Shown piece by piece: positions 38,586 to 59,840 of a DNA stretch of 62,434 bases (position 1 is its first letter; the number at the start of each line of letters is the position of its first letter). Under the pieces are notes generated by a model. That model worked only from the letters and a program-made list of their open reading frames with translations. It made no database searches and was not told where the DNA came from. Where the stretch lies: the NCBI GenBank assembly GCA_018304025.1, contig JAGVXA010000012.1, forward strand, positions 1 to 62,434, read 5' to 3'. The position numbers and the translations under genes were made by a program. Source of the DNA: Candidatus Pacearchaeota archaeon. Its GTDB lineage: Archaea > Nanobdellota > Nanobdellia > Pacearchaeales > GW2011-AR1.

Positions 38586-40541
38586 ATGAAAAAAGGCGTG
38601 CTATTTGTTTTTGGAATTTTTGTTTTGGTTTATTTGGTTGAGAATGTTTCTGCTGACTGCGTTGGTGGGTGGACAGAAGGAAATAATATTTCACAATATG
38701 GAATAACTTGGTTTTTTGACAAGCCATATCAATGCGGGACTTTTGTCAATGGAGATTATTGGGTTGTTGGACCAGCAAATATAATAAAAATAATTCCGGA
38801 ATCTGTAGCAATCAATGAATCTGGAATTACTAACAGAATTATTAACGGAGCCATGATAAATATTAATTCTTCGATAAAACAAATAGGTTATGACAGTGCG
38901 ATAACTTCTTTTAGATACAATGAAAGTCTTAACGCTGCAAGAAAAAATGGCGCCCAAATTTCATCTGCGAACTTTTTGGAGTTACCTGCCAATACTTCTC
39001 TGGTTTCTACGATTAGCTTAAATTCAACTTTTTATGATTTTGGGGTCACGCAGGGTTATGTGCTAAAAACAGCTGCGATTTTGACAGTGCTAGATAAAGT
39101 TCCGGCGGAAGGAAGTTTTAGGCCGGCATATTGCGGAAACGATAAAACAATAAAATTTAATGAAAATCAATTGAACTATAATTTGCTGTCAAACTTAGAT
39201 AGAAAAAATTATACTAGCAGTTTGTCTTTGAAAATGTTAAATGAAACTGAAAGCCGCACCGAATCTTCTCCGGCGGAAAGACAGCTAAGCAGACCATGGC
39301 TTGACCACTTGGGGACTGGAATGGGCGATGTAATAATGCCGTATGAAAATGGAAATCGCTACCCAGGGTATCGAAATCAGCATATTCAGATTAGCGCGAT
39401 GATGCTGAATCTTGACTGGACAGGATCTCCAGGTTTTGTAAGCAATGAACAATTCAAGAGAGATTTGTTAGTTGAGAATGTTCAATTGGGAATTGATCTT
39501 TACGGAGTTTACAAATTTAATACCTATTTAGGATGGGATGCAGAGGGGGGGCACGGAATCAGCAGAAAATTTCCGATTATATTTGCGGGGACGATGTTAG
39601 ACGGTTCACAAGCAAACAGCGATGCAAGGGCAATGAAGAATCTTTCATTTTCGCCAGGAATTGAGATTGCTGAAGATCTGCAAATTTTTTATGTTAATCA
39701 AAGCACAATTGACGCCCAGAATAACAACTATAGTTCCAGCAATAATTGCAATCCTCAAAGAATGATACCTTGGGGAGACCCATTAAATGTTTGTGACTCG
39801 AGTGAATGCAATGGAGATGCTTGTGGTAATGCAGTTGGTCCGGATCCTCGTTCTACGTATATCATTCCATACGCTCAAACAGATTTTGGACTTCCTGAAT
39901 GGAAAATTGGCCCAGCACATCCAGGAACTTTTAACAGAGCATGGCGCAGTTACTATCGGCAAGTTTCTCAGGGTTATTTTCCAGGGATAGCACTCGCCGT
40001 AAGAATAATGAATTTAACTAAAGAATGGGATCATAATGAATTTTTAGACTACATGGACAGATATGTGGAAATTGAAAGAGAGTCTCGAAGAAGACTTGTG
40101 AATGCTGGTGGAAGTATGAATTATGGCGAATGCATTTATAATTATACGACGCATGTTTGCGAACCTGGAATTGAATTTAACATTCCTGGGACACCTCAAG
40201 AAGATATTCGTGGAAATGAAGTTCACGAAATTCTTGCAAGACATTACGCTTTTAGCTCTTCGCTTGTTGAAAATCTTTGGAATGATTACAGAGAGAGCTA
40301 TGGTTGTGTTTGGGAATATGATAATCTTACGGATTTGAATTCAAAGTGGCATTACAATTGTTCGGGCGCGCTGGTGCGATGCGAGGGGCACGCGTCTGTA
40401 GTCGGCGATTTAGTTGCGCAATGCAGTGATTATCCTAATCAGCGCGCATTGGAAGATAACCCGTGTGGATTTGGATGCGAAGGAATGGCAATGCCGGTTG
40501 AATCGTGCACAATAACAAAAGCATATTGGCAAATTGTGTAA
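38586..40541 (+). CDS. secreted protein of unknown family (paralogue of 43711..45360) ending in CTITKAYWQIV
   Basis: Signal peptide. The shared N-terminal block GNNISQYGITWFFDKPYQCGTFVNGDYWVVGP and later blocks (GGHGISRKFPIIFAG) match the paralogue. Confidence 0.7.
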   Translation: MKKGVLFVFGIFVLVYLVENVSADCVGGWTEGNNISQYGITWFFDKPYQCGTFVNGDYWVVGPANIIKIIPESVAINESGITNRIINGAMININSSIKQIGYDSAITSFRYNESLNAARKNGAQISSANFLELPANTSLVSTISLNSTFYDFGVTQGYVLKTAAILTVLDKVPAEGSFRPAYCGNDKTIKFNENQLNYNLLSNLDRKNYTSSLSLKMLNETESRTESSPAERQLSRPWLDHLGTGMGDVIMPYENGNRYPGYRNQHIQISAMMLNLDWTGSPGFVSNEQFKRDLLVENVQLGIDLYGVYKFNTYLGWDAEGGHGISRKFPIIFAGTMLDGSQANSDARAMKNLSFSPGIEIAEDLQIFYVNQSTIDAQNNNYSSSNNCNPQRMIPWGDPLNVCDSSECNGDACGNAVGPDPRSTYIIPYAQTDFGLPEWKIGPAHPGTFNRAWRSYYRQVSQGYFPGIALAVRIMNLTKEWDHNEFLDYMDRYVEIERESRRRLVNAGGSMNYGECIYNYTTHVCEPGIEFNIPGTPQEDIRGNEVHEILARHYAFSSSLVENLWNDYRESYGCVWEYDNLTDLNSKWHYNCSGALVRCEGHASVVGDLVAQCSDYPNQRALEDNPCGFGCEGMAMPVESCTITKAYWQIV

Positions 40542-40713
40542 AAATATAAATAGCATTTCTAATTTGGGAAATAGTTATTCTGAGAAGATTAGCTTCGGAG
40601 ATAATTAATGGGAAGAAGAATTTTTGAAGGGTTGTAAGATTACAAAAAATTTTTCTAAACTATAATCTCTGGAATTCATAAAGATTTATAAATTTCCTGC
40701 TGCGTAAAGAGAG

Positions 40714-41280
40714 ATGAAAAAAGCTTTGGTGATTGTCGCGCATCCTGATGATGAAACAATCTGGATGGGCGGAACGATTTTGAGAAACAAGAACTGGGAG
40801 TGGACAATTTTTTCGCTGTGCAGAAAAAATGACGTCGACAGAGCGCCGAAATTCAAAAAAGTTTGCGAGATTTACAACGCTTCTTCGATTATTTCTGATT
40901 TGGATGATGAAATTTTGGAGCCGCTTGATATTTCTGAAGTTGCTGATAAAATGAAAGAAAAAATTTCCGGCGAGTGGGATTATATTTTTACGCACGGTGA
41001 GAACGGAGAGTACGGACACTTGAGGCACAAAGAAGTTCATCGGGCTGTCAAGGAGATGATTAGAAAAAAAGAATTGAATTGCAAGAATCTTTTCTTTTTT
41101 TCCTACGTTTTGCCGTCGGGAAATAAGATTCCTTCTCCAACAGATGCAGCTGATTTGAAAATAAATTTGAACAAAACAGAAATGAACGCAAAACGAAAAG
41201 TAATTAAAGATGTTTATGGTTTCAAAGAGAACAGCTTTGAATTTTTGAGCTGCAAAAAGGAGGAGTCGTTCAATAATTAA
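40714..41280 (+). CDS. PIG-L/LmbE-family N-acetylglucosaminyl deacetylase
   Basis: ALVIVAHPDDETIWMGG and HGENGEYGHLRH. Confidence 0.8.
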   Translation: MKKALVIVAHPDDETIWMGGTILRNKNWEWTIFSLCRKNDVDRAPKFKKVCEIYNASSIISDLDDEILEPLDISEVADKMKEKISGEWDYIFTHGENGEYGHLRHKEVHRAVKEMIRKKELNCKNLFFFSYVLPSGNKIPSPTDAADLKINLNKTEMNAKRKVIKDVYGFKENSFEFLSCKKEESFNN

Positions 41281-41281
41281 A

Positions 41282-42499
41282 ATGAAAATAGTTGTGATGC
41301 ACCCATATCCGTTAGAAAGCGACGGGCAGAGCCTGCAGGGAGATTATCTTTTTCGCGGACTGAAAGAAATCGGAGAAGAAGTCATGCAGTGCGACAGAGG
41401 AAATAGTTTTCACAAGACGTGGGTTTACGAGCATTTCAAGCCAGACGTTGCAATCGGAGTTGGATTTTGGGCAGATACTCCAGAATTAATTCATGCTCCG
41501 CAGGAAGACGGCGTGCTGCCTGTTCCGTGGTTTAATGCCGACGGGTGGGTGGCGAATTACCAAGACGATTTGAACAAACTTCCTCTGATTGTTGCTACAA
41601 GCAACTGGGTTAAATCAACTTACATACGAGACGGCGTGAAAGGAGACAATATTGAAGTATGCTCGATTGGATTTGATCCTGCTGTTTTTTATCCTCGGCA
41701 AAAAAATGATCCTGCTGTTTTGAAATTAAGAGAGATGCTGGAAATTAAGGAAGATGAAAAAATGATTCTTACTGCGGGCGGGGATGTTACTTCGAAAGGG
41801 GCGCAGGAAATGTTGCAGGCGCTTGCGAAGATAGACAAAGAATTTCCGAAATGGAAATATGTCTGCAAGACAATGGATAGTTTTTCTGCGAAGAATCACG
41901 GCAAGGAAGAAAAATCTTTGATAAAAGAATTAGGGTTGGATAAGCACAAGATAAAATATCTTTCTGAAGATTTTTCTCCAGACTTTATGGCTCTTCTTTT
42001 GAACGCCTGCGATATTTACGCTGCTCCGTCGCGATTGGAGGGATTTGGAATGATTCAGGTTGAGGCGATGGCTTGCGGGAAACCTGTTATTTCAATAAAT
42101 GTCGGCGGGCCGAGGGACACGATTGTCCACGACAAAACAGGATTTTTAGTTGATGTTGCGCATGAGATTAAGCTGGAGAAAGAATGGGTTTACAAGCACA
42201 TGGGCTTCAAGGAAAAAATGATGATTGATTTTCCGATTCCGAAGACGTTTGCTTACCGAGCTGATATTAATCAGTTAGCGTCGTGCACTTTGAAATTAAT
42301 GAAGGATGATGTTTTGCGGGAGAAGATGGGGCTTAACGCAGCCAAACACGCTTTAGAGAATTTTCATTACAAAGTTATTGCGAGGAACATGAGGGATTTG
42401 ATTATGCGAAGAGTTTTCGACGGGAATGGGGAGAAGATTGCGCAGGGGATTAAGAATACTGTTGTGAAGAAGGAAGAGAATGGCAACGGGTTAGAGTAA
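41282..42499 (+). CDS. GT4-family glycosyltransferase
   Basis: PSRLEGFGMIQVEAMACGKPVIS..GGPRDTIVHDKTGFLV. Starts 1 nt after the deacetylase stop. Confidence 0.8.
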   Translation: MKIVVMHPYPLESDGQSLQGDYLFRGLKEIGEEVMQCDRGNSFHKTWVYEHFKPDVAIGVGFWADTPELIHAPQEDGVLPVPWFNADGWVANYQDDLNKLPLIVATSNWVKSTYIRDGVKGDNIEVCSIGFDPAVFYPRQKNDPAVLKLREMLEIKEDEKMILTAGGDVTSKGAQEMLQALAKIDKEFPKWKYVCKTMDSFSAKNHGKEEKSLIKELGLDKHKIKYLSEDFSPDFMALLLNACDIYAAPSRLEGFGMIQVEAMACGKPVISINVGGPRDTIVHDKTGFLVDVAHEIKLEKEWVYKHMGFKEKMMIDFPIPKTFAYRADINQLASCTLKLMKDDVLREKMGLNAAKHALENFHYKVIARNMRDLIMRRVFDGNGEKIAQGIKNTVVKKEENGNGLE

Positions 42500-43600
42500 A
42501 ACTTTTTTCTTTTTCAAAGATTCATACGCAAGAATATACATTCCCGCGTTCCACGCCTGATTGCCTTCTTTTGACAAAGAGTTTGGCTTTCCTGTTTTGC
42601 CGTCGAGCCATTCGCTGAATAATGGATTTTGCAAATTGGCTTTTGCAAGTTTTTCTAATTGACTCTTTGCTTCTGAGAATTTTTTCTGCTTGATTAATGC
42701 GAGGATGTAGAAGCCGCCGATGTAAGTCCAGATGCCGCTGTTCGAATATTGGTAGGGCGTGCGCGCGCCGCAGTCGTTAAAATAATCCTGCCAGTCCTTG
42801 CTTCCTTTTTTTATAGGGGGATAGATTGTTTTTATTGGAAATGGTTTTGCGATTTTTTCGTTTTGAATGTGCTGCAGAATTTTTTTAGCTTGTTGTTTTG
42901 AAGCGACATTGAAAATAACTGCTAATAAGTTGCCGAGCGAGTCGAACCATTCTCCTTTTTCCTGATAGGAGTTATGGTTTTTCCAGCGCCAGGGCAGGTA
43001 AAACTTTTCTTTCCAGAGAGAAACATCGCTTATTTCGTTGATTCTTTTTTTTAGTTTTTCTGCCTGCTTTTTTTTATTTGCTAATTTCAGAGCCTTGTAG
43101 TAAAGCGCCTGCGTGTTTATCGTGTGCCCGTATCTGTGGGGAAAGGCGTCCTGCCAATCTGTCGTCGGGAGCTGCTCCAGCATGATGTCTTCTGTTGTGT
43201 CCTGATAGGAAAGCCAGGTGAATGCTTTTTTGATATTCTTTTTTTGGGAGTTGAATAATTTCGAGTCATTGTATCTTTGCCTGTAAATGTAGTGCCCGAT
43301 TATAAACCAGAGAGTTGAGTCGATTGAAGTGAAGTCGACGTGATGTTTTCGTTTTACGAATTTGTCTACTGCGTTTGGGATTTGCCCTTTTTCGCTTTGT
43401 TCTTTCGCGAGAGTTTTTAACGACGCTGCGAATGTTTTTTTGAAGTTTTTTCCGAGGAGAGATGCGCCTAAAGAGGTTATCATTGAGTCTCTTGCCCAGA
43501 CCATGTCGTAGCCGGGGAAAGCTGCGAAAAATCCGTGGGGTGTTTCGCATTTTTTCAGAACTTTGACTGCTTCGCTGTACGCCCTCTTTGTTTCGTCCAT
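42491..43600 (-). CDS. (alpha/alpha)6-barrel glycoside hydrolase-like protein (GDE_C / neutral-invertase-like)
   Basis: GYDMVWARDSMITSLG near the N-terminus. W-rich helical repeats. An alternative ATG at 43666 would add 22 aa. Confidence 0.6.
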   Translation of the reverse strand: MDETKRAYSEAVKVLKKCETPHGFFAAFPGYDMVWARDSMITSLGASLLGKNFKKTFAASLKTLAKEQSEKGQIPNAVDKFVKRKHHVDFTSIDSTLWFIIGHYIYRQRYNDSKLFNSQKKNIKKAFTWLSYQDTTEDIMLEQLPTTDWQDAFPHRYGHTINTQALYYKALKLANKKKQAEKLKKRINEISDVSLWKEKFYLPWRWKNHNSYQEKGEWFDSLGNLLAVIFNVASKQQAKKILQHIQNEKIAKPFPIKTIYPPIKKGSKDWQDYFNDCGARTPYQYSNSGIWTYIGGFYILALIKQKKFSEAKSQLEKLAKANLQNPLFSEWLDGKTGKPNSLSKEGNQAWNAGMYILAYESLKKKKVLL

Positions 43601-43710
43601 TGTTAAATTAATATTTTGGAGTTTAAATTGTTTTGGGAAAATTGTATAAATATTAATAAAAGTCATATAATAACAAATTTTAATAACTCTCCTTATTATT
43701 AATTTGAAAG

Positions 43711-45360
43711 ATGAAAAAGGTGTTAATTCTTTTTGGAATTTTTATTTTATTTAGTTTGAATTTTGTTTCTGCTGAATGCGCCGGCGGAGTTACTGTCGGA
43801 AATAATATCTCGCAATATGGCATAACCTGGACATTTGACAAGCCGTACCAATGCGGTCAATTCGTGAACGGGGATTACTGGGTCGTCGGGCCGGTGACGG
43901 TTCAAAGTGTTAACCCGCCGCCAACCGGCAGTGGCAGTTCCTTTCGCAACGGTTCGATGGTGAATCCACGAACCGGTTTAGACTCAAAACAAGGATATCA
44001 TGGCAATACATACGATTTTGATGCAAGCACATCAACAAGTTTTCCTCTCGATTTGTCTGCGGGTCAAAGTTTGCTTTCGTCAATATCAAACGCGGATGAT
44101 TTTCGTTTACCTAACGGTGTTTATCTTCCTATAAAAGTAATTGCTATTATCACTTGCTTAGATAGTAATCCTGGCGTTGATGCTTTTCGGCCTCAATACA
44201 GCACGGGAGCGAAAACCATTTATCATTCAACCGGATTGCTTACCAATTTGTTGCCGAACCTGACTCCTGCCAGCAATCCCCCCAGTTTAGAGAGTGTCGC
44301 GGCAGTTTTTGAGAAACCTTGGGTGGATCATTTCTGGGAATATCCCGGTGGTACTTTGCACCCACACCTTAATTTTCCGGAATGCACCTATGGCCGAGAT
44401 TCAACCATGCAGGTAGGTCGGGCAGCCCTAATGTTGTGTTCCGATAGTGCGGTTATTGGAGACAAAACTATTTTACTGAACCGGATTGTTCAATTAGGTA
44501 TCGATAATTATGGCTTAGTGCTCGCCGGGCAAAAATGGTCATCGCAGGGTGGGCATCCAATTGGCAGGAAACTCCCGATACTTATCGCTGGCCTAATGCT
44601 GAATGATTCCGAAATGTTTGGTGTCGGTACCAGCTATCCGCCAGACAGCATAACTTTCGGCGAAGATCACCAGATTGCCCACATCACCCAATCAATGATT
44701 GACGCGATTCAGCAACCTGAGGTGAGCGGGATTGTTCAGGGAGCGACGGCTAATACTGTTATTCTGCAAGAGGCTGCTTATCCACAATCATTGAATGATA
44801 TACAAAAAGACAATGAAATTGAAATAATTTCTGGGCGGGGATTGGGTCAACGCAGAACATTTTTGTCTTTTAACGCAAATACAAAAACCGGGACACTGAA
44901 AACCAATTGGGATATTATTCCAGACGGTACTTCGCGTTATCACGTTATCGGTTATGAGTCTAATATGCTTGGGGTGGCCGAATGGGGATCAAACCTGCGG
45001 GCGACAGGCGGCGTGCAAGCTAACCCATCGTGGTACGCTGGTTACCGAACACTCGTAGGATATACTCTAAACGGAGAAGCGTTAGCCGCTTTCATGTTGG
45101 GATTAAAGTCGGCATGGAATAACGACGCCTTTTTCGATTACACGGATCGTTACATGAATGTCACCGCTCCCAACGGAACGTATCCTGGTTATCGCTCCAT
45201 TGATGCGTGGACAGAAAGAATGTGGGACACATATCGTAATTGTTCTAACGGAATCCAAGATGGAACTGAAACAGGGGTTGACTGCGGGGGAATTTGCCCT
45301 GATGTATGCGAAGCGATGACGCAGTGCACGATAACAAAAGCATATTGGAAATTAATTTAA
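43711..45360 (+). CDS. secreted protein of unknown family (paralogue of 38586..40541) ending in CTITKAYWKLI
   Basis: Signal peptide. GNNISQYGITWTFDKPYQCGQFVNGDYWVVGP. Visibly more GC-rich than its surroundings. Confidence 0.7.
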   Translation: MKKVLILFGIFILFSLNFVSAECAGGVTVGNNISQYGITWTFDKPYQCGQFVNGDYWVVGPVTVQSVNPPPTGSGSSFRNGSMVNPRTGLDSKQGYHGNTYDFDASTSTSFPLDLSAGQSLLSSISNADDFRLPNGVYLPIKVIAIITCLDSNPGVDAFRPQYSTGAKTIYHSTGLLTNLLPNLTPASNPPSLESVAAVFEKPWVDHFWEYPGGTLHPHLNFPECTYGRDSTMQVGRAALMLCSDSAVIGDKTILLNRIVQLGIDNYGLVLAGQKWSSQGGHPIGRKLPILIAGLMLNDSEMFGVGTSYPPDSITFGEDHQIAHITQSMIDAIQQPEVSGIVQGATANTVILQEAAYPQSLNDIQKDNEIEIISGRGLGQRRTFLSFNANTKTGTLKTNWDIIPDGTSRYHVIGYESNMLGVAEWGSNLRATGGVQANPSWYAGYRTLVGYTLNGEALAAFMLGLKSAWNNDAFFDYTDRYMNVTAPNGTYPGYRSIDAWTERMWDTYRNCSNGIQDGTETGVDCGGICPDVCEAMTQCTITKAYWKLI

Positions 45361-45424
45361 TATTTTTTCACACGTCGCGTTAAGTTTATAATATCTTATT
45401 GATTTATTATCGAATAGGATTAAA

Positions 45425-45520
45425 ATGAGAGTTGATTGGAAGGATGTGATTATCTGGATTTTGGGAATATTGGCATTGATAGTGATAGCTATAGGTTATT
45501 TTAGAGGAGAATTTGGATAA
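45425..45520 (+). CDS. 31-aa single-TM peptide MRVDWKDVIIWILGILALIVIAIGYFRGEFG
   Basis: Below the track cutoff. Its TAA overlaps the next ATG (TAATG). A paralogue lies at 59499..59603. Confidence 0.5.
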   Translation: MRVDWKDVIIWILGILALIVIAIGYFRGEFG

Positions 45521-45756
45521 TGAAATTAAATATTTATGAAATATTATTTTGGATATTTTTTATACTTGCGATTGTAACTGTTTTCTGGTATATTTTTGGC
45601 GATAGTCCGACGATTGAACAGGCGTTATTAATTTTGGTAATTAGTCTTTTGTTTAAGATTCAGTCTAATGTATCGTTTAATACCGCAGAAATAACTATTC
45701 TGAAAAGAAGTTTTATTAGAATGGCTGACGATTTTAAAATGGCGAGGAAAAAATGA
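45520..45756 (+). CDS. 78-aa two-TM protein (paralogue of 59600..59839)
   Basis: Shared pattern LFWI...W.IFG.SP. ATGA overlap with the aldolase gene. Confidence 0.55.
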   Translation: MKLNIYEILFWIFFILAIVTVFWYIFGDSPTIEQALLILVISLLFKIQSNVSFNTAEITILKRSFIRMADDFKMARKK

Positions 45757-46505
45757 AAATTAAATGGGGAAAACTTTTGAGAAAAGGGAAGGCGATGTTT
45801 CTTGCTTATGATCAGGGAATGGAGCACGGGCCGTCGGATTTTGACGACGAGAATGTTAATCCTTTGGATATTATTTCAATTGCTGAAAAAGGGAAATTTA
45901 CAGGGTTGATTGTGCAGAAAGGGATTGCTGAGAAATATAACGCAGAAATTAGAAAATCGCGAGTGCCTTTGATATTGAAACTGAATGGGAAAACTAATTT
46001 GTTCAAGGGAGAGCCGATTGCTCGGCAGTTATGCAGTGTGCGGGAAGCTCGGAAACTTGGCGCTCGGGCTGTCGGATATACGATTTACATCGGCAGTGAT
46101 TATGAAGATGAAATGGCGCAGGAATTTGAGAGGATTCAGAGAGAGGCGCATAAATTTAGAATGCCTGTTGTTGCCTGGGTTTATCCTCGAGGGAGATCTG
46201 TTAAGGGGAAATCAAAAATAAAATTAATGGCTTATGCTGCGCGGTTTGGATTGGAGGCGGGAGCTGATATTGTCAAGCTGAATTATTTTGGAGAGATGAA
46301 AGATTTGAAATGGGCTGTGAAATCTGCGGGGCGGTGCAAAGTTGTCGTCGCTGGCGGCGTTAAGAAAAATGAGAGAGAGTTAATGAAACAGGTTGGCGAG
46401 ATTATGGTTTCGGGTTGTTCTGGAATTGCAATAGGAAGAAATGTCTGGCAGGCGGATGAGCCTCTAAATGCTGCGGAGAAAATAAGAAACGTCGTTTTCA
46501 GATAA
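45753..46505 (+). CDS. class I fructose-bisphosphate aldolase, archaeal DhnA/FbaB type
   Basis: 250 aa. AYDQGMEHGP, IVKLNY, VVAGG, GIAIGRN. An AroA'-type function cannot be excluded. Confidence 0.75.
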   Translation: MKIKWGKLLRKGKAMFLAYDQGMEHGPSDFDDENVNPLDIISIAEKGKFTGLIVQKGIAEKYNAEIRKSRVPLILKLNGKTNLFKGEPIARQLCSVREARKLGARAVGYTIYIGSDYEDEMAQEFERIQREAHKFRMPVVAWVYPRGRSVKGKSKIKLMAYAARFGLEAGADIVKLNYFGEMKDLKWAVKSAGRCKVVVAGGVKKNERELMKQVGEIMVSGCSGIAIGRNVWQADEPLNAAEKIRNVVFR

Positions 46506-46564
46506 AATAATTAAGTTTAAAATAACAGGATTCTTTTGTTTATCATAAATAGGGTGCAGAAAAT

Positions 46565-47266
46565 ATGCTAAAAGGAAAAATTGCGATTGTTACTGGCGGG
46601 GCAAAGGGAATTGGCAAGAGTATCGCGGATAAATTAATTAAAGAAGGAGCGAAAGTTGTTGTTTTGGATATTGAGAAAGCGAAAACAAAGTATTCTGAAA
46701 TTTGTGATGTTTCTAAATTTGACGACGTGCAGAAAATTATTTCACGCGTCGGAAAGAAGTTTGGAAGGATTGATATTTTAGTCAACAACGCAGGGATTTA
46801 TCCTTTTCAAAATTTAGCGGAGATGGCGGAAGAGGAATGGGACAGAGTTATTGATATTGATTTGAAGAGCGTGTTTAACTGCACGAGGGCTGTTTTGGAT
46901 TTTATGAAAAAAGGCGGGAAGATTGTGAATATAACGTCGATAGCTGGTTCGCGTATTGGATTTTCCGGCTTGACGCATTATTGCGCTGCAAAATCCGGGA
47001 TTGTTGGTTTTACCCGGGCTGCTGCTTTGGAGCTGGCGCCTAAAAAAATTAATGTGAATGCAATTGCTCCGGGCTTGATTATTACGCCGGGCGTGACGAG
47101 CGGGCTGGACAAGAAAGGAATAGAAAGTACTGTTGGGATGGTTCCGTTGAAGAGGGCTGGACAACCAGAAGATATTGCCGACGCTGCTGTGTTTTTGGCT
47201 TCTTCTGGGGCTGATTATATTACTGGGGAGACAATTGCTGTCGACGGAGGATGGACGGTTTCTTAA
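46565..47266 (+). CDS. SDR-family oxidoreductase (FabG-like)
   Basis: TGGAKGIG, NNAG, and the S...YxxxK catalytic pattern (YCAAK). Confidence 0.85.
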   Translation: MLKGKIAIVTGGAKGIGKSIADKLIKEGAKVVVLDIEKAKTKYSEICDVSKFDDVQKIISRVGKKFGRIDILVNNAGIYPFQNLAEMAEEEWDRVIDIDLKSVFNCTRAVLDFMKKGGKIVNITSIAGSRIGFSGLTHYCAAKSGIVGFTRAAALELAPKKINVNAIAPGLIITPGVTSGLDKKGIESTVGMVPLKRAGQPEDIADAAVFLASSGADYITGETIAVDGGWTVS

Positions 47267-47267
47267 A

Positions 47268-47906
47268 ATGATAGTAATAAATTTCAAGAATTATAAATTT
47301 GGGAAAGAAACGGTTGAGCTTGCCAAGAAGATAGAGAAATATTTGCCTTCTGCTATTGCCTGCCCTTCGGCGCTTGACGCCGGCGATGTTTCTTGCTCGA
47401 CTAAATTAAAAGTTTACGCGCAGCACGTTGACAACTTCGATGGCGATAGAGCTACGGGTTTTGTTTTGGCTGGAGGGTTGAAAAAATTGGGAGTTCGCGG
47501 AAGTTTGCTGAATCATTCTGAGCATAGAATTCCTGAGAAAGAAATTGCGGAGACGATTGCGAAATGTAATTCGCTCGGATTGAAAATTATTTTGTGCGCT
47601 GAGAGTGTTGCTGAAGCTCGGAGATTTATTTCTTTGAAGCCCGAGGCGATTGCGTTTGAAGACAGGGATTTGATTGGGAGCGGGAAGTCGATTACAGATT
47701 ACAAAAGCGACGAGGTTAAAAAATTTGTCGGGGTTTTGCGAGGGAGCGGAGTGAAGGCTTTATGCGGCGCTGGGGTGAGTTCTGCGGAAGATGTTCGTGT
47801 TGCTTTTGAATTAGGATGCGACGGAGTTTTGATTGCTTCTGCGATTGTTAAGGGAGATTTGGAGAAAGCGGAGAAATTGCTGAGAGAGATTAGCAGAGTG
47901 AGATGA
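47268..47906 (+). CDS. tpiA: triosephosphate isomerase (archaeal type)
   Basis: The ATG at 47268 gives MIVINFKNYKFG. LNHSEHR, GSGKS, and a C-terminal GVLIASA. Confidence 0.85.
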   Translation: MIVINFKNYKFGKETVELAKKIEKYLPSAIACPSALDAGDVSCSTKLKVYAQHVDNFDGDRATGFVLAGGLKKLGVRGSLLNHSEHRIPEKEIAETIAKCNSLGLKIILCAESVAEARRFISLKPEAIAFEDRDLIGSGKSITDYKSDEVKKFVGVLRGSGVKALCGAGVSSAEDVRVAFELGCDGVLIASAIVKGDLEKAEKLLREISRVR

Positions 47907-47969
47907 ATTTTATTGGAGTTGCGTGCTGAAGAACAGAATATTTTTAATGTTCGTTTTCTTATTTTATCT

Positions 47970-48311: not shown

Positions 48312-48314
48312 ATT

Positions 48315-48449: not shown

Positions 48450-48496
48450 ATTAAGAAAGGATGTTTAAAGTTTATAAAACTTGTGAAAAGAAAAAA

Positions 48497-49411
48497 TCAT
48501 TTTACCAGCAGACTAGCTCCGATTGTGCCGGGATGCCTTAGGCGCGAGAATTCTATAGGGGTTGCGTGCGGGAGAATAGAGTATTTTTTCGCTGATTGTT
48601 TTATTTTATTCAGGAGAGGAGCGCCTGCTTCTGTAAATCCGCCGTTTATCACAATTACTTCTGGGTCGAATACATTTATCAGAGAGCCGAGCCCTTGTCC
48701 GATGTAATCATACGTTTCTTCCAAAATTTCTTTTGCTTTTTTATCATCCATTTTTATCAGTTCGGAAATTAACAGGTCTTTTTTGAATGTTTCTTTTATT
48801 TTCTTTTTTGTGTCCTGCCAGAGCGTTTCGAAGAATTTCCCGTCTTGAAGTATTATGTGTCCGAGTTCGCCTGCGAATTTTCTTCCCGTGTAAATATTTT
48901 TTTCGATTACAATTCCTCCGCCAATTCCTGTGCCGAATGCAATTACAATGAAATTTTTTTTCTTTACTCCGAGTGTTTTTTCTGCGAGAGTTATGCAGTG
49001 CACGTCGTTTTCAATTGCTACTTTTCTCTTGAATTTGGTTTCTAAATGTTTTTTTAGATTGAAATTTTTCAGCGGGATGTTTGGGGGGTTTTTTATTATG
49101 CCGTTTTCCAACGGTCCGGGGGAACCCATTCCAATTGCTTTCACGTCTTTGTCAATTAAGGAATCTATTGTATTGTCTAATAGTGCTAGGAGTTCTTCTT
49201 TTGTTTTCGGAGTAATGTTTTTTATGTATTTTATTATTTTATTTCCTTCTACTAAAGCGACTCTTAGGTTGGTTCCGCCGAGATCTACTGCAATGACTTT
49301 TGGTATGTTAACTCTGCTTTTTTTCGGCGCGAATTGTCGTGACAATTCGTTATCTTTATGAAAATTCGCGGAGCGAATTTTCTGCGCGCCGAAATTAATT
49401 TGATTATTCAT
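48497..49411 (-). CDS. ROK-family glucokinase
   Basis: AVDLGGTNLRVA, GTGIGGGIV, GELGH. The first ~30 codons run through a palindromic repeat unit. Confidence 0.8.
   Translation of the reverse strand: MNNQINFGAQKIRSANFHKDNELSRQFAPKKSRVNIPKVIAVDLGGTNLRVALVEGNKIIKYIKNITPKTKEELLALLDNTIDSLIDKDVKAIGMGSPGPLENGIIKNPPNIPLKNFNLKKHLETKFKRKVAIENDVHCITLAEKTLGVKKKNFIVIAFGTGIGGGIVIEKNIYTGRKFAGELGHIILQDGKFFETLWQDTKKKIKETFKKDLLISELIKMDDKKAKEILEETYDYIGQGLGSLINVFDPEVIVINGGFTEAGAPLLNKIKQSAKKYSILPHATPIEFSRLRHPGTIGASLLVK
49325..49391. mobile_element. 67-nt palindromic unit (CGGCGCG arms) at the 5' end of the glucokinase gene
   Basis: cggcgcg-gaattgtc gtg acaattc-..-aaaattcgc gga gcgaatttt-..cgcgccg. Same family as 4490..4553. 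Confidence 0.65.
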
Positions 49412-49620
49412 TTTTCCTCTTTTCTTATTATTGAGAGGCAGAGGAGTATAAAAATTTTGGGATGTTCGGATATTGCAAGAATATTAGAATATGCATAAAT
49501 TATTTATCGTATTAAACTTTTGAAGTTATATGTTTAGAAGGAAAATACCGATGAGAAATACGAATTTAAGATAATTATTTGTGAGATAAAAAGTTACGCT
49601 TCTTATTAACTATGGCGGCA

Positions 49621-49635
49621 GTAAAATATAATAAC
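49621..49635 (+). promoter_or_regulatory. putative TATA/BRE region (gtaaaatataataac) 35 nt before the ATG
   Basis: The identical 15-mer lies at the same distance upstream of the paralogous leader at 53115. Confidence 0.35.
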
Positions 49636-49655
49636 TGTGCAAGACAATTCTATTT

Positions 49656-51683
49656 ATGAAAAAAGAGGGGGCTTTACTTATTGGAGCATTTATTTTAATA
49701 TTTTTGAGCTTTGCTTTTTTCTCTGAGAGGTTTGTTCTTATGGGGCCTGATGATGGGGACTGTGTCATAACTAAAGCGAGGTGGAAAGTTTCTGAGAATA
49801 TTTCTGTTGAAAATATCAGTCAATCAGATACAGACGGAGATGGAATTGGAGATGAATATGATAATTGTCCGAACCATAGCAATGCAAATCAGGCAGATAC
49901 AGACGGAGATGGAATTGGAAATGCTTGCGCTTATATTTGTTTTCATGACGTAACAGGAAATCTTGCTGTTGATACAACCGACCTTGCTAAGGTAAAAGCC
50001 TATAACAGCACGACGAACTGCAGTTTAATAACTAATGCTTCTGATTCAAAACATTCTTTGCCTTGGTGCAATTTTGTTGATGTTAACAGAGACACTGTTG
50101 TTGATTTTATAGATCTTGATATTGTAAGAACTTACATTGGAGGATTATGCTATTGCAGCAGCACAAGGGAAATTTGCGACGGGATTGACAATAATTGCGA
50201 CGGGATTATTCCCGATAACGAGATAGATTCAGATAACGATGGTTTACCTGACTGTTATGGGCAGTGTTACAGCTCTCAGGATACAGATGGCGACGGAGCC
50301 AGAGATTCGTGCGATAATTGTGTGCTTGTCGAAAATTCTGGGCAGGAAGATTCAGATGGCGACGGAGCCGGAGACGCCTGCGACAATTGCGTATTTTATT
50401 CAAACTACAGACAGCCAGATTTAGATTTGGATGGGCTTGGAGATGAATGCGACAATTGTCCTCTTGTCAAAAATCCCCTGCAGGAAAATTCTGACAGTGA
50501 CATGCACGGAGACGCCTGCGACCTATGCCCTGGATTTGAAAATGAAGGAAATTATGATATGGATAAAGATGGGCTTGGAGATGAATGCGATAATTGCCCT
50601 GCAAAGTATAATCCGAACCAAGAAGATGTTGATGGCGACGGAGTCGGAGACGGATGTGATAACTGCTTAGATATACCAAATAACGACCAATTGAATGAAG
50701 ACCGTGACGATTTAGGGGATGCCTGCGATAATTGCCCGGCAGTCTATAATCCTACTCAAAGAGATATTAATGGCAACGGCGTGGGAGATGTTTGCGATTA
50801 CTGTGAACAAAACAGCGATTGTCCGAGCAATTCCTGCTATACTCCCTCCTGCAATGTTTTACTGCATAGATGCGAATATGTCCACAACTGGCAAGTTCCC
50901 GGGTGCTTAGCATGCGGGACAATCATATCAACGAGCAACGTCGTAGTAACTCTGGACAGGAATCTTGATAACTGCAAGGATTTTGGAATTATGATTGACG
51001 CAAATAATGTGACTGTTGACTGCAGCGGATATGAGATAACAGGGACAGAATATATTTCTGCTGCTTATTATCCTTCTTTAAACAAAGAAAGCTGCAGCAT
51101 TCCTGAATTTAATCAATATGTTTATCCGAGCGGAGTTGTAGTGTGCAGAGGCAACCAGAAATACACTGTAAAGAATTGCATGATTCATGATGGCTTTAAG
51201 ACAGGATGGTATGGCGGAGGAATAACTGTTTATGCCGATAGTTCGAGCTATTCGACAGCAGGATTAATAGAAAATAATACTCTCTATAATGTGGCAAATG
51301 GTCTGATGCACTGGGGAGACTTTGATATTGTAAGAAACAACATTTTTGAGAATAATGCTTTGGGTATCTTTGCCGATGAGGTTATGGGGGCAAGCTATGT
51401 GAACAACACATTCAGAAATTCTTCAAAAGCAATAAGCAGGTATTGCGGCGTGTACTGCAATCACCGAGAGTATCCATTGAATATAGCGGACAATCTATTT
51501 GACAAAAATAAAGTAGGAATTGACTTCTGGACAGCAGGTGATGGGGATATAAGAGACAATATATTGAGGAATATCTTCATAACTCTGCCTGGTCAATCTG
51601 CGATAATAAATACATCTTCAATGAAAAACATAACAAACTATTATGAAGGGAATATATTAAACGGAGAGCCTTATTCGCCGTGA
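49656..51683 (+). CDS. secreted thrombospondin type-3 (Ca-binding) repeat protein with C-terminal beta-helix domain and N-terminal CVITKARW tag
   Basis: At least 10 D-x-D-x-DG-x-x-D-x-CDNC repeats, one [10 protein letters not shown] motif, and a NosD-like N-x-x-x-N rung pattern at the C-terminus. Confidence 0.75.
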
Positions 51684-51757
51684 TAAATCTTAATTTGATA
51701 GAGTTTAGATAGGAAAGGTTTTTAATAACTGGATATTAGATTATTTAGAAAAAGAAG

Positions 51758-52738
51758 ATGAATATAGCAATAAACGGATTCGGGAGAATTGGAAGAGCTG
51801 TGTTTAAAATAGCGCTGGAAAAGGGGATGCATATTGTCGCGATTAATGATTTGTCCGACGTGAAAGATTTGGCTTATTTGTTAAAATATGATTCTGTTTA
51901 CGGACGTTATGACAAGAAAGTCGGAATTAAAGGAGGAGATTTGGAAATTAATGGGAAGGTTGTTAAAGTTCTTGCTGAAAAAGACCCTTTGAATTTGCCG
52001 TGGAAAAAACTCGGAGTTGATGTTGTTATTGAATCAACTGGTTTTTTTACAGATAGGATAGGGGCTGAGAAACATTTGAAAGCTGGCGCGAAATTTGTTT
52101 TGATAACTGCTCCTGCCAAGAATCCTGATGCGACGATTGTTTTGGGAGTTAACGACGGAGATTTAAAAAAAGAACATAAGATTATTTCTGCTGCTTCCTG
52201 CACGACGAATTGCCTTGCGCCGATTGTGAAAGTTCTTGATGATAATTTTGGAATAGAACAGGGGATTATGACGACGGTTCACGCTTACACGAATGATCAG
52301 GTTGTGCATGACCAAGTTCACAGAAAAATGCGCCGGGGGCGGGCAGCAGGATTGAATATTATTCCTACTACGAGTGGGGCGAGCGAGGCGATTAACGCTG
52401 TTATTCCGAGATTAAAGGGGAGGATTGACGGCTTGGCTTTGCGAGTTCCTGTTTCTGTGGGTTCTATTGTTGATTTTTCTGCGAGGTTGAAAAGACCTGC
52501 GGATGCTGCGAAAATAAATGAGGCGATGAAGAAAGCAGCGCAAGGGACGATGAAAGGAATTTTGGATTATACTGAAGATGAAATTGTTTCTTCTGACGTG
52601 ATTGGTACGACTTGCTCGTCGTTGTTTGATGCTACTGGGACGATAGTTCTGGGTGATTTAGTAAAGGTATTTTCCTGGTATGATAATGAGTATGGGTATT
52701 CGTGCAGAGTTGTGGATGTTGTTAGGATGCTGAGGTAA
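51758..52738 (+). CDS. gap: glyceraldehyde-3-phosphate dehydrogenase, type I (bacterial/eukaryal class), copy 1
   Basis: INGFGRIGR, SCTTNCLAP, WYDNEYGYS. Confidence 0.92.
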   Translation: MNIAINGFGRIGRAVFKIALEKGMHIVAINDLSDVKDLAYLLKYDSVYGRYDKKVGIKGGDLEINGKVVKVLAEKDPLNLPWKKLGVDVVIESTGFFTDRIGAEKHLKAGAKFVLITAPAKNPDATIVLGVNDGDLKKEHKIISAASCTTNCLAPIVKVLDDNFGIEQGIMTTVHAYTNDQVVHDQVHRKMRRGRAAGLNIIPTTSGASEAINAVIPRLKGRIDGLALRVPVSVGSIVDFSARLKRPADAAKINEAMKKAAQGTMKGILDYTEDEIVSSDVIGTTCSSLFDATGTIVLGDLVKVFSWYDNEYGYSCRVVDVVRMLR

Positions 52739-52767
52739 GAATTTAATTTTTAGTATATAAATTATAT

Positions 52768-53032
52768 CGCTGCGTGACGCATTTGGACTTTTGTAAGAAC
52801 CCTTCTCGGTTTCTTACCAACTTCCCCTTGCAATACGTTCAAGGCTGATTTTTTGCTGCTGGCAAGTCTTATCAGTAAAATTCGCTCTTGATGCGTCGCA
52901 ATTGGACTTGCCAATTCTTGTCGCTGGCAAGTCTTATCGGTAAAATTCGCTCTTGATGCGTCGCAATTGGACTGTAAAATTCGCTCCGCGAATTTAGCGA
53001 CGCATCAACTCCGCGAATTTAGCGCGCCGAAC
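52768..53032. mobile_element. composite of at least three nested/tandem palindromic units
   Basis: The segment ggcaagtcttatc.gtaaaattcgctcttgatgcgtcgcaattggac occurs twice in tandem. Arms gatgcgtcgc/gcgacgcatc. Terminal gcgaatttagcgcgccga. Confidence 0.6.
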
Positions 53033-53079
53033 TAACTTGTTACGAGACAAAAAGCATAGATTCTTATTGAAATGTGATA

Positions 53080-53094
53080 GTAAAATATAATAAC
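53080..53094 (+). promoter_or_regulatory. putative TATA/BRE region (gtaaaatataataac) 35 nt before the ATG
   Basis: See 49621..49635. Confidence 0.35.
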
Positions 53095-53114
53095 CTTGCA
53101 GGACAGTTTTATTC

Positions 53115-55820
53115 ATGAAAAAAGAGAGGGCTTTATTTATTGGAGTATTTATTTTAATAATTTTAATTTTTTCATTTAACTCTTTTGATAAATTCCTTCT
53201 TATGGATCCGGGTGATGGAAACTGTGTCATAACTAAGGCGCGGTGGGAAGTTGCCGAGGATATTTTTGTTGAAGAAAAGGAACCGCTCTTGCTAAATATA
53301 ACTTCATCAAGCTGCAGGAAGTATGGTAATTCTATCGGCGAATTTATGGGTTTGCTCGCTGAAACCGGCAAGACAGCTTTTCCTGTCGGGAGAGGTGTTT
53401 TGGACAATCCAAATGTTAACGGCGCAGATAATCCGAGCGTGTTTTACGACGACAACGGAACACTTTTTCTTATTTTTGGGGACCCTAATGGCGACGGCGG
53501 CGTGTTTAGAGACGGGGCGATGGCATTTACTTCTGAAATTGTTCCGGAGAAAAATCTGGACTTAAAGCATAATCGCAACTGGGCTGTTAGAAGCGACGAT
53601 TACAACAACGACGGATATTATGATGCGGCTTCGTTAGCGGGCAAGGCAGGATACACCCGTGTGAATAATATTGGCGGAGCTGTTTTGGATTTGCCTGACG
53701 GGCGGAAGAGAATTTTATTCATGGCTTATTTTTATATATCGCAGCCTACTAACCCTCAGAGAGTGCAGCTGCTTTATTCAGATGATAATTTTGAGACAAT
53801 GGCTGTTAATAATCCAGAGCTTATATTTTGGGATTATTCTGACGGGGGCTATGGAGCCTATGCGCCGCATGTTTTTCTTGGGTATAGCATGAGAAGGCTT
53901 GGAGATTATATTTATATTGCAATGCCAAGGTCAGGCAGCGGGAATTTAGTAATGTTCAGAGCTAATGTTGGTGACTTAATAAAATCAGATTTATCTTTGA
54001 GCGATTGGGAGTATTTGAATTCGACAAACGCAAGTGGATACGCCTCCTGGATTAAAGGAGTTGAAAGAGGGCAGATTTCTTTAGCATGGGACGATGAAAA
54101 ATACATTCCCCCAGTCAATTTTAGCTCTGCGCCCTCTATCTTGAGTTCGATACATTGGAATCCTTACTTAAACAAATGGATTGCGATGGACACGATTTAT
54201 GTTAATACTTGGGAATCTGATTATTACTGGGGGCCTTATACAAATATTACTTTTATAAATCATTACCCTTATTTCAACGGATATAACGCATTTACTCACG
54301 AAACTTTGCTTGGAGAGAATGGAAGAGATATTTATTACGCGAGGTCAAGATGGCCATCGTCTGGATATTACGGAACATATTGGTTCAAGGCAAGAATGAC
54401 TCCGCTGATGGAAATTGAACTTTCCCAAAAATCTGCTGTGAGAGGAAACAACATTTCTATTACTGTTACTGATAATTCTGGAGATGTCCGCGAGGCAGAC
54501 TTTTATGTTGGTGTCGACGGATGGAAGGCGGATTATACAAAGAGCGAAGGAAACAAACATTTCTTCAGCTATGTTGTTTCAGGAGAAGAAAATAATGGAG
54601 GAGTTGGAGTTGTTAATGTTGCTGCTTACAAGATTTACAGGAATTCTCCGATAAACGCGTCAAACATGAGAGAGGTTGCTTTGGCTGTCAATCATAGAAA
54701 TGATTTGCATTTAGATATAACGTCTCATGCTGAGAATGAAATTGTTTCTGGGACTGTTATTATTAATGCAAGCGCGTGGTATGATACTGCGGTTGAAGAA
54801 AATTCAGAGGGGAAGCCGGAAGTTTATGTTATAAGAACTGTTTTGGAATCTACTGAAAACGAAATGGTTGAGGACGCTGATGTTCTTGCGCCGTATAGTT
54901 TGAAATTGGACACTTCGAGATATGAAAACGGATTGCATGAATTCAAGATTACTGTTTACGATACAATAGACAGAAAAGCTGAGAAGATAATTAGATTGAA
55001 TATTCAGAATGGCGCGGCGCCTGCTGTGGCCGGAAATTATCTTTCTGACGGGGACATGGAAGCTGACGGAACGAGTTCGTGGATGTCTTATACTTCTGGT
55101 GCTTTGCTAAAAGTTTCCGACGGAAGGCAGAGAAATGGGAAGCAGAGCTTACTAATTATTAATAATGACAGCGCCGGAACTGGCGAGTATAGGGGGATGC
55201 AGCAAATTGTGAGCGGGCTTAGCGGGGGAGAGAGTTTATATTATTCTGTGTGGGCAAAAATGCATCAGAATATAACTTCTAAGACTCCGTCTGACATTTT
55301 TGCAGGGGAATATTTGAATAACTCTTTTTACTGCGGGATTTATGCTCCAGGATATAATTGGCTGGATATTTGCTACAACTACTATTCTCCATTTAGCTAT
55401 TTTATTAAATGCGGGAGGCAAATCACAAATCCTTCCGGAAATACAGATCTCTATTTTATATGCGCGGTCAGGGAAAGAAATGTTGATGCGGGCAGAATAG
55501 AATTAATTATTGACGACGCTGTTTTAAGAGACGCTTCTTATCCTGTTGTTGAAGACGCGACAAATTTGAATTTAGATTTGATTGACGGGAGAGTTGAATT
55601 GAGCTGGGAGTTTGCTAGAGATTTGAATGTAGAGTATTATTATATTTATAGAAAATTAATTGGCGGCACTTATGAAAAAATCGGAGAAGTTAGAGATTAT
55701 ATGCGTTCTTTTTCTGATGATGTTTCTTCACTTGCGAGCGGAGAGTATGTGTATAAAGTTGTTTCTGTCGATGAAATGGCTAAAGAAAGCAATGGCGTAG
55801 AGATTGGATTTGTGAAATAG
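53115..55820 (+). CDS. large secreted protein with N-terminal CVITKARW tag, possible glycosidase-like beta-propeller, CBM-like and FN3-like C-terminal modules
   Basis: 901 aa. The leader is paralogous to 49656... LFLIFGDPNGDGG resembles DUF4185-type cores. The C-terminal VELSWE...YYIYRK...GEYVYKVVSVD is FN3-like. Confidence 0.65.
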   Translation: MKKERALFIGVFILIILIFSFNSFDKFLLMDPGDGNCVITKARWEVAEDIFVEEKEPLLLNITSSSCRKYGNSIGEFMGLLAETGKTAFPVGRGVLDNPNVNGADNPSVFYDDNGTLFLIFGDPNGDGGVFRDGAMAFTSEIVPEKNLDLKHNRNWAVRSDDYNNDGYYDAASLAGKAGYTRVNNIGGAVLDLPDGRKRILFMAYFYISQPTNPQRVQLLYSDDNFETMAVNNPELIFWDYSDGGYGAYAPHVFLGYSMRRLGDYIYIAMPRSGSGNLVMFRANVGDLIKSDLSLSDWEYLNSTNASGYASWIKGVERGQISLAWDDEKYIPPVNFSSAPSILSSIHWNPYLNKWIAMDTIYVNTWESDYYWGPYTNITFINHYPYFNGYNAFTHETLLGENGRDIYYARSRWPSSGYYGTYWFKARMTPLMEIELSQKSAVRGNNISITVTDNSGDVREADFYVGVDGWKADYTKSEGNKHFFSYVVSGEENNGGVGVVNVAAYKIYRNSPINASNMREVALAVNHRNDLHLDITSHAENEIVSGTVIINASAWYDTAVEENSEGKPEVYVIRTVLESTENEMVEDADVLAPYSLKLDTSRYENGLHEFKITVYDTIDRKAEKIIRLNIQNGAAPAVAGNYLSDGDMEADGTSSWMSYTSGALLKVSDGRQRNGKQSLLIINNDSAGTGEYRGMQQIVSGLSGGESLYYSVWAKMHQNITSKTPSDIFAGEYLNNSFYCGIYAPGYNWLDICYNYYSPFSYFIKCGRQITNPSGNTDLYFICAVRERNVDAGRIELIIDDAVLRDASYPVVEDATNLNLDLIDGRVELSWEFARDLNVEYYYIYRKLIGGTYEKIGEVRDYMRSFSDDVSSLASGEYVYKVVSVDEMAKESNGVEIGFVK

Positions 55821-55859
55821 ATTTTAGGGTGATTAATATTTTGAGGAGATAGTTAGTGT

Positions 55860-57735: not shown

Positions 57736-57765
57736 GTTTATATAGACGACTTCTAAAAATAATTT

Positions 57766-59839: not shown

Positions 59840-59840
59840 A

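Follow-up and report, generated by a model that had tools for sequence, protein, structure and literature searches.

Described signals that place secreted proteins at the prokaryotic cell surface include the tripartite CTERM signals (PGF-, PEP-, MYXO- and CGP-CTERM), which follow a plan of motif, transmembrane (TM) segment and basic tail; PGF-CTERM is associated with archaeosortase A and PEP-CTERM with exosortase. For Cys-containing sorting signals, cleavage by Rce1-like CPBP proteases has been proposed (Haft 2023, bioRxiv 10.1101/2023.06.07.544157), and in the literature we found no described sorting signal of the kind reported below for DPANN archaea. Here we analyse a 62,434-nt contig of a Candidatus Pacearchaeota archaeon (JAGVXA010000012.1; this whole stretch is referred to as the window), which encodes five copies of an 11-residue peptide, C-x-[IL]-T-x-A-[YR]-W-x-Φ-x, located at the C-terminal end of secreted proteins or, in two proteins, just past a membrane anchor. 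This peptide, which we call the tag, is under selection, terminal, modular and extracytoplasmic, and it occupies the place of anchoring modules. Judged from sequence comparison, it is conserved far beyond its carriers, it has been transferred as a module between unrelated carriers, it keeps strictly to protein ends, and it holds neither a TM segment nor a basic tail. We tentatively read it as a surface-retention or docking peptide that would be recognised in trans by a shared partner.

In common with the tripartite CTERM signals, the tag is a short motif near the C-terminus, found in seven such copies on at least three carrier types. It differs from them in having no TM segment, with 2–3 residues following its Trp and 9–10 its Cys (K/R and Q among them), and no Arg/Lys cluster, the chains ending in QIV, KLI, QVV, QIA, KLA or EV. 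The likeness to the Cys-containing tripartite signals (Haft 2023) extends to the invariant Cys, the occurrence on unrelated secreted proteins of one lineage and the slot past the last folded domain; the differences are the missing TM segment and basic tail and the additional occurrence near the N-terminus. With the PGF-CTERM/archaeosortase A and PEP-CTERM/exosortase systems, it shares the character of a lineage-specific C-terminal tag of surface proteins, and one bacterial relative of a carrier (P0116) has a C-terminal tail that resembles PEP-CTERM by eye; the signature residues of the tag, however, are others. No CTERM model was matched in NCBIfam scans of the full carriers (E up to 1) or of the isolated tails (E up to 10). 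An initial annotation of this DNA had described the tag as lacking TM helix and basic tail and as unlike PGF-CTERM or PEP-CTERM, a description that both the sequence and these hidden Markov model scans bear out.

Copies of the tag in the window and in metagenomes

Translation of the window returned all five copies at the positions that the initial annotation had assigned to them; the overall span it gave (38586-55820) leaves out the beta-helix copy at 17396-17446. The copies are as follows.

40506-40538, plus strand: C-terminal tag CTITKAYWQIV of a 651-aa secreted protein, then TAA
45325-45357, plus strand: C-terminal tag CTITKAYWKLI of its 549-aa paralogue, then TAA
17399-17431, minus strand: C-terminal tag CVLTRAYWQVV of a 501-aa beta-helix protein, then TAA
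49761-49793, plus strand: N-proximal tag of a 675-aa TSP3-repeat protein, starting at Cys36, ~12 residues past the hydrophobic leader
53223-53255, plus strand: N-proximal tag of a 901-aa protein, starting at Cys37

The open reading frames (ORFs) with a C-terminal copy end, directly before the stop, in SCTITKAYWQIV (651-aa protein, 38586-40541, +), QCTITKAYWKLI (549-aa protein, 43711-45360, +) and QCVLTRAYWQVV (501-aa protein, 17396-18901, −). The stop is TAA in all three and the sequence 3′ of it is unrelated and stop-rich, so that these tags represent true protein ends; the same observations rule out stop-codon read-through and a truncated domain. A six-frame search for T[KR]A.W found exactly 5 sites in 62 kb, all of them tag copies, and the degenerate 24-nt pattern TGYRYNHTNACNMRNGCNHRNTGG gave 5 matches against 0.01 expected, a count that 0 of 100 shuffles reached. 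Copies in the window lie at protein ends in 5 of 5 cases, and none is internal.

The five copies listed by the initial annotation do not amount to five separate events: the window holds about three independent tag contexts, because the tags of the 651- and 549-aa enzymes are paralogous and the two N-proximal tags (N-tags) come from the duplication of a single module. Identity between the 651- and 549-aa paralogues is 33%, and their tags diverge at 1 base within the first 24 nt. Between the 675- and 901-aa proteins, homology is limited to the first 53 residues (66% amino acid identity), the remainder being unrelated, and the DNA likeness of the two genes begins ~95 nt upstream of the ATG. On the evidence of these alignments, a 5′ module of upstream DNA, leader, tag and ENISVE/EDIFVE segment is duplicated onto two unrelated bodies, and its upstream DNA presumably holds the promoter.

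49561-49814, plus strand: duplicated 5′ module, copy 1 (~95 nt upstream, leader, tag, ENISVE segment), boundaries approximate
53014-53276, plus strand: duplicated 5′ module, copy 2 (upstream DNA, leader, tag, EDIFVE segment), boundaries approximate

In the same region, a segmental duplication relates 49456-52738 and 52915-57735, and two GAPDH genes (51758-52738 and 56755-57735), nearly identical in protein, each lie downstream of a tag-module gene.

Between the three classes of tag, only ~14 of 24 nt are common and the differences are concentrated at synonymous positions; conservation therefore acts at the peptide level, as the initial annotation had proposed, while its statement that codons differ at many synonymous sites holds between the three classes but not within them. 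A DNA-level element such as a recombination site or a terminator is ruled out by this pattern of mostly synonymous change together with the unrelated flanks.

Four further genuine copies were found in public metagenomes, all stopping 2–3 residues past the Trp.

P0004 / L010-L012, 587 aa: CVLTRAYWQIV, then stop; 37% identical to the 549-aa protein
P0122 / L137, 209-aa fragment: CTLTSARWEV, then stop
L133, 621 aa (ORF of 628 codons): CMITKAYWQIA, then stop; relative of the 651-aa protein
L123, 658 aa (ORF of 665 codons): CTITKAYWKLA, then stop; like the window beta-helix protein in the last 27 residues only

All nine copies agree at C1, T4, A6 and W8; position 3 holds I or L, position 5 K, R or S, position 7 Y or R, position 9 Q, K or E and position 10 I, L or V, which gives the consensus C-[TVM]-[IL]-T-[KRS]-A-[YR]-W-[QKE]-[ILV]-x. 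The enzyme-family carriers are only 26–37% identical among themselves, and the tag is kept in them as well as on unrelated carriers. Since the DNA search patterns contained no stop codon, they were blind to position; in both of the real copies added by the scan of JGI metagenomes (L133 and L123), the Cys lies exactly 11 residues ahead of the stop. Together with the 5 of 5 terminal copies in the window, this marks the tag as non-random and terminal. The JGI scan used a pattern that also matches CVITKARW[KE]V and returned these two C-terminal copies and no N-terminal copy.

The distribution of the tag appears restricted. Two pattern scans of 185,579 GTDB species genomes gave 15 matches, none of them real, so that the tag-bearing clade is either very narrow or absent from the species representatives, and scans of IMG/VR gave no useful match. 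A padded tag-only profile search of homologous proteins returned no candidates. When the tag profile was run with 35 flank columns against protein representatives, matches at E ≤1e-3 comprised carrier relatives only (self, P0004 and P0122) and three spurious proteins; with the flank columns kept, this search is not an unbiased tag-only census. The RtcB protein of the window is 70% identical to that of a Woesearchaeota metagenome-assembled genome (MAG), followed by Pacearchaeota and Nanoarchaeota MAGs, and genes identical to those of the window occur in the groundwater metagenome PRJNA292723 (runs SRR2177950 and SRR2177968), to which P0004 also belongs. The lineage is thus a Woesearchaeota-like DPANN archaeon of groundwater. 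It looks as though the tag is confined to a few uncultivated groundwater DPANN archaea and is very narrowly distributed.

The matches that were set aside fall into short ORFs, ORFs antisense to a gene, and sites inside unrelated bacterial genes. The match in 'archaeon SMAG_U8126' (L006/L122, ending in KCTITNAYWELRGVS and a stop) falls in a 46-codon ORF between real genes on a contig of 45% GC and was attributed to chance; the L111 match runs antisense to a bacterial ORF of 355 aa, pilM-like by eye, within which it lies; and the L125 and L130 matches, internal to bacterial ORFs read by eye as TruA and with Q or H at position 7, were likewise taken as chance. Among proteins, P0123 and P0125 contain 4–6 repeats of EGCTDTNAYWK that look like translated tandem-repeat DNA, are unrelated to the tag and form a trap for motif searches, and the repetitive protein P0124 is a spurious match to the flank columns only.

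Carrier proteins and the slot at their ends

The carriers and the one annotated domain adjacent to a tag are listed here.

38586-40541, plus strand: carrier 1, 651-aa protein with Sec-type leader (VSA-DC), a body of no known family and a Cys-rich C-terminal module
43711-45360, plus strand: carrier 2, paralogue of carrier 1 (549 aa), from a widespread family that lacks both a Pfam model and a PDB fold match
17396-18901, minus strand: carrier 3, 501-aa right-handed beta-helix protein with Sec-type leader (Pfam Beta_helix)
17456-17593, minus strand: choice-of-anchor Q domain (aa 437-482) of carrier 3 (NF041518, E 1.5e-10, 41.2 bits against a cut-off of 25)
49656-51683, plus strand: carrier 4, 675-aa protein with N-terminal hydrophobic anchor, tag, TSP_3 repeats (Pfam) and a C-terminal region
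53115-55820, plus strand: carrier 5, 901-aa protein with the N-module of the 675-aa protein and no Pfam family

Read by eye, cleavage of the classical Sec-type leaders of the three proteins with a C-terminal tag (C-tag) would give the mature N-termini VSA-DC, VSA-EC and VSA-IENC. At the other end, the tag is set off from the last folded module by a linker of 5–9 residues that varies in length and sequence; in the 651-aa carrier, the Cys-rich module (YPNQRALEDNPCGFGC) is followed by a 9-residue linker and then by the tag. The family of the 651- and 549-aa proteins, with 648 matches at E ≤1e-3 among 8,000 candidates scored and labels that include Planctomycetes, Bacteroidota and Woesearchaeota, is secreted, bears the N-terminal signature ISQYGITWTFD...NGDYWVVGP and is an uncharacterised family of probably glycan-active enzymes. 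Pfam scans assigned no family to the 651-, 549- and 901-aa proteins, and the carrier bodies gave no Foldseek or PDB sequence match, the 549-aa protein having no PDB relative despite a confident model. In the leader of the beta-helix protein, residues 16-20 read ...FASLGC20VSA; ASLGC does not fit the strict lipobox [LVI][ASTVI][GAS]C, though we take it to fit the permissive PROSITE lipobox profile, and this protein might be a lipoprotein rather than a product of signal peptidase I cleavage after VSA.

The two N-tag proteins both start with MKKE followed by 18 hydrophobic residues, with no conserved signal-peptidase site, and are most simply read as type II anchored, which would place the tag ~12 residues outside the membrane. 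Lipoproteins, defined by the lipobox [LVI][ASTVI][GAS]C, are reported to be prevalent in DPANN (PMC12462473). Both N-tag proteins resemble them in having a Cys soon after the hydrophobic leader, but this Cys stands in ...LMGPDDGD-C and ...LMDPGDGN-C, ~12 residues past the hydrophobic core, which is not a lipobox. The class III (prepilin-type) consensus has its [KR]-[GA] cleavage site immediately ahead of the hydrophobic stretch; the N-modules differ from it, starting MKKEG-ALL and MKKER-ALF with E at −2 in both and R at −1 in the second, and TIGR02537 matched neither the 675- nor the 901-aa protein.

The presence of N- and C-terminal versions together in one 62-kb window would also suit a heterotypic docking pair, the second idea of the initial annotation, in which the anchored N-tag proteins would be receptors and the C-tag would pair strand-to-strand with the N-tag, locked by a Cys-Cys disulfide. 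A position ~12 residues outside the membrane anchor would be a useful place for a tether, in the N-module a short turn and then another strand-like segment (SENISVEN or AEDIFVEE) come after the tag and could form a sheet edge, and the N-tag sequence falls within the range of the C-tags, ARWEV occurring in P0122 as well. The N-tag, however, is one duplicated module of this genome only; it is missing from five homologues of the 901-aa protein, the JGI scan described above returned no N-terminal copy, the one further match to an N-tag sequence is the antisense site in the pilM-like ORF, and the C-tag contigs L010, L123 and L133 lack an N-tag in the 9–22 kb that they span. With an N-tag that arose in a single event and is confined to this genome, the proposal is weakened, and we regard such a pair as distinctly improbable.

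The C-terminal tags, in turn, lie where related proteins carry anchors. Choice-of-anchor domains are named as a class for preceding alternative anchors, and the 501-aa carrier belongs to the choice-of-anchor Q class (NF041518), with a domain above the cut-off that stops 8 residues ahead of the tag Cys; the L123 protein, whose likeness to it is limited to the last 27 residues, matches the same model with 22 bits, below the cut-off of 25. In the same position, bacterial relatives of the 549-aa carrier have a type IX secretion system (T9SS) domain (PF18962), a dockerin (PF00404), FlgD-Ig (PF13860) or PF18998. Since a choice-of-anchor Q domain precedes the tag and the enzyme relatives carry C-terminal anchoring modules, the tag stands in a known anchor position. 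Like dockerins (with their cohesins), T9SS C-terminal domains and SLH domains, it is joined through a linker to the C-terminus of secreted glycan-active enzymes and is swapped among carriers; unlike them, folded modules of ~60–100 residues with Pfam models, it has 11 residues and cannot fold alone, and Pfam scans found PF00404 or PF18962 in none of the five carriers.

The Cys-rich C-terminal module (...YPNQRA.DYDPC.LGC) recurs in archaeal relatives, which differ in what comes after it. P0005 and L141 stop directly past the module (for example in ...GCN), P0053 (...GCDGNC) and L142 (...GCGGSC) stop at a Cys aligned with the tag Cys, L140 continues into an unrelated tail of ~35 residues that ends in Cys, and L139 continues into further domains. 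As homologues vary at just this place, the carrier ends constitute a swappable slot for attachment devices, of which the tag is one. Scans of the tag and of the alternative Cys-ending tail against Pfam and NCBIfam gave no matching model for either, even with the E limit raised to 10.

In related DPANN archaea, many secreted proteins end in Cys (...GNC, ...GSC, ...ETGC, ...RTGC and ...YACC in P0053, P0028, P0036, L140:3001-3300 and L142:431-650), and two relatives share an unannotated Cys-ending tail in which the motif L..[MA]I..W[KR].G is repeated; such ends may be other attachment devices.

Candidate roles of the tag

The invariant Cys at the start of the motif allows for an enzyme-processed signal, in which a peptidase or transferase would read the motif, modify the Cys by lipidation or by a thioether or thioester bond to a surface polymer, and remove the tail, as in the Cys-containing CTERM signals or the CaaX box. 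P0053 and L142, which end exactly at the aligned Cys, look as a processed product would; several DPANN relatives and a pilin-like protein encoded next to the beta-helix gene end in Cys too; and proteolysis by Rce1-like CPBP proteases is the proposal for the known Cys-containing signals (Haft 2023). With the CaaX box read by Rce1, the tag shares an invariant Cys near the C-terminus and a short, partly aliphatic tail, but the CaaX Cys is fourth from the end of a cytosolic substrate, whereas in 7 of 7 C-terminal copies the tag Cys takes the 10th or 11th place from the end of an extracytoplasmic protein. The tag also offers no TM segment or Arg cluster that could hold a precursor for an intramembrane enzyme, its tails match none of the family models searched, and no enzyme is conserved next to it across the tag-bearing contigs. 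No CPBP protease, sortase or archaeosortase was seen among the part of the window ORFs that was scanned (62 kb). In the N-terminal copies, cutting after the Cys would delete the whole protein. On balance, processing of this kind is unlikely.

Structure models and Cys counts bear on a second possibility, an intramolecular staple, in which strand and Cys would fold back onto the carrier or onto its mature N-terminus and protect it from proteolysis with no part in sorting. The AlphaFold2 (AF2) model of the 549-aa protein has a mean predicted local distance difference test score (pLDDT) of 89.6, with the body >90 and residues 516-549 (Cys-rich segment and tag) at ~40 and unpacked on the body, which agrees with a tag borne by unrelated folds. 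Cys-rich modules without the tag have 6 or 8 Cys (P0005, L141) and those with it an even set plus the tag Cys, 7 or 9 in total (counted by eye), a parity that fits a tag Cys unpaired within the module. For a staple speak the Cys at mature position 2–4 of all three C-tag proteins of the window (positions by eye), the even total of Cys in the 651- and 549-aa proteins, and the very high Cys content of extracellular proteins of these archaea. A fold-specific strand, however, is hard to square with an 11-mer that occurs at either end of the chain and in no fewer than three unrelated folds; around the mature N-terminus of the L123 carrier there is no Cys, AF2 leaves the tail undocked, and the linker ahead of the tag varies in length. 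A staple is accordingly improbable in our estimation.

Recognition in trans, the reading introduced at the outset, can be stated more fully. The tag would be a free-standing extracellular address peptide of a narrow groundwater DPANN clade that keeps secreted or membrane-tethered glycan-active and adhesive proteins at the surface, a proposal to which we give somewhat less than even credence. In this scheme, (i) the carrier would be exported by Sec, (ii) the tag would be presented on a short flexible linker at the free end of the ectodomain, mostly the extreme C-terminus and, in the one duplicated module, just outside the N-terminal membrane anchor, (iii) a shared cell-surface partner would bind it in trans as an extended amphipathic strand (beta-augmentation), and (iv) the invariant Cys would be free to lock the complex via a disulfide. 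The unpacked tail of the 549-aa model and the Cys parity of the tag-bearing modules, both described above, speak for this scheme. Binding, strand conformation, disulfide and common receptor are steps that we infer. Of the new sorting or anchoring tag suggested by the initial annotation, what stands is a modular, terminal tag, conserved at the peptide level on extracytoplasmic carriers that are 26–37% identical or unrelated; sorting or anchoring is what we propose rather than observe.

Several findings weigh against recognition by a shared partner. Apart from the carriers, no gene family is common to the window and the three other tag-bearing contigs, and the comparison of neighbouring genes brought out no partner for the tag. 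As the N-terminal version comes from one module, duplicated in one genome, the evidence for a tag at either end rests on a single evolutionary event; this version is absent from five homologues of the 901-aa protein (P0127–P0131, 37–42% identity), an outcome that the initial annotation had named as refuting its proposal, and of these homologues P0131 has a hydrophobic C-terminal segment instead, as judged by eye. The whole-protein Cys counts of the 651-, 549- and 901-aa proteins are even, so that the tag Cys could pair within its own chain in 3 of the 5 carriers. The disordered tail of the 549-aa model counts as weak evidence because only three alignment rows carry the tag, and the AF2 model of the 901-aa protein, built from six sequences with a mean pLDDT of 57 and ~30–37 in the tag region, is too poor to read. 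Finally, only nine copies from about five populations are known, which leaves the distribution statistics thin.

Genomic setting and meaning for the DPANN surface

Next to the beta-helix gene of the window lies a gene that touches on a further proposal, attachment to type IV pilus-like fibres, in which the tag would be a donor strand that plugs enzymes onto pilin-like proteins.

16101-17363, minus strand: 420-aa neighbour with type IV pilin-like N-terminus (MKKRG-LSNLIATVLLVLLV) and MopE motifs, ending in Cys (...LNGC, then stop); TIGR02537 E 0.0077, under the cut-off

This gene starts 32 nt after the beta-helix gene and is listed here as a neighbour only. The L123 tag gene (658 aa) likewise stands among at least six small genes (L123:2163-8727) whose N-termini, a K-rich start and then a long hydrophobic stretch, suggest by eye the signals of type IV pilins or archaellins, a reading that NCBIfam models do not back. 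Donor-strand complementation itself is described for archaeal thread filaments (PMC9715654). The tag resembles the donor strands of these threads and of chaperone-usher pili as a short, strand-like terminal extension, a functional analogy only; the carriers differ from the subunits of such systems in being large enzymes or adhesins that do not self-polymerise, those systems have no Cys lock, and no acceptor subunit lacking a strand, such as one with an incomplete Ig-like fold, came to light here. The pilin assignment is weak, since the TIGR02537 score in the window is under the cut-off and the L123 genes match no family, and next to the enzyme-family tag genes (two in the window, L010 and L133) no pilin-like gene is present. 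DPANN genomes abound in such genes, so that the two adjacencies may be due to chance. Attachment to such fibres is very unlikely in our view.

The wider setting of the tag genes is one of sugar-metabolism genes interleaved with genes for tagged proteins (window 45753-47906, 48497-49411, 51758-52738 and 56755-60782). Pfam scans of the matching ENA contig identified a ROK-family kinase, a DeoC-family aldolase, an SDR, TIM and two GAPDH, and inspection by eye added PGK, a PfkB-like kinase, glycosyltransferases and an LmbE-like deacetylase, a set that is unusually complete for a DPANN locus. On L133, 3 kb from the tag gene, a 406-aa protein (10544-11764, −) has a signal peptide, a thioredoxin-like CPHC motif near its N-terminus and no Pfam match, and could be an extracytoplasmic thiol-disulfide oxidoreductase. 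Elsewhere in the window, four Rfam tRNA matches (7111-7277, +; 7909-8005, +; 25896-26039, +; 29120-29269, −) were missed by ARAGORN, which gave three ordinary tRNAs; as they span 97–167 nt, they are presumably intron-containing archaeal genes.

The biology of DPANN archaea, which are tiny and mostly episymbiotic, hinges on surface display, and to our knowledge almost nothing is known of how they retain secreted enzymes and adhesins. Taken at its broadest, the tag could represent a new class of archaeal surface signal, a TM-less 11-residue Cys/Trp peptide at either end of an ectodomain that is read by a DPANN receptor or ligase; we consider this broader claim doubtful. If it is true, the DPANN superphylum would have in this tag its first described short signal for sorting or anchoring, and the tag would form, with its partner, a natural pair of peptide tag and catcher of possible biotechnological use, and a compact tagging system if the Cys makes the link covalent. 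Its impact is limited mainly by the narrow distribution, with nine copies in about five uncultivated populations. The tag would widen the range of prokaryotic sorting signals beyond the plan of motif, TM segment and basic tail, and it would point to a new receptor or modifying enzyme. As a marker of the surface-retained secretome, it would allow the displayed proteome of these archaea to be predicted from metagenomes.

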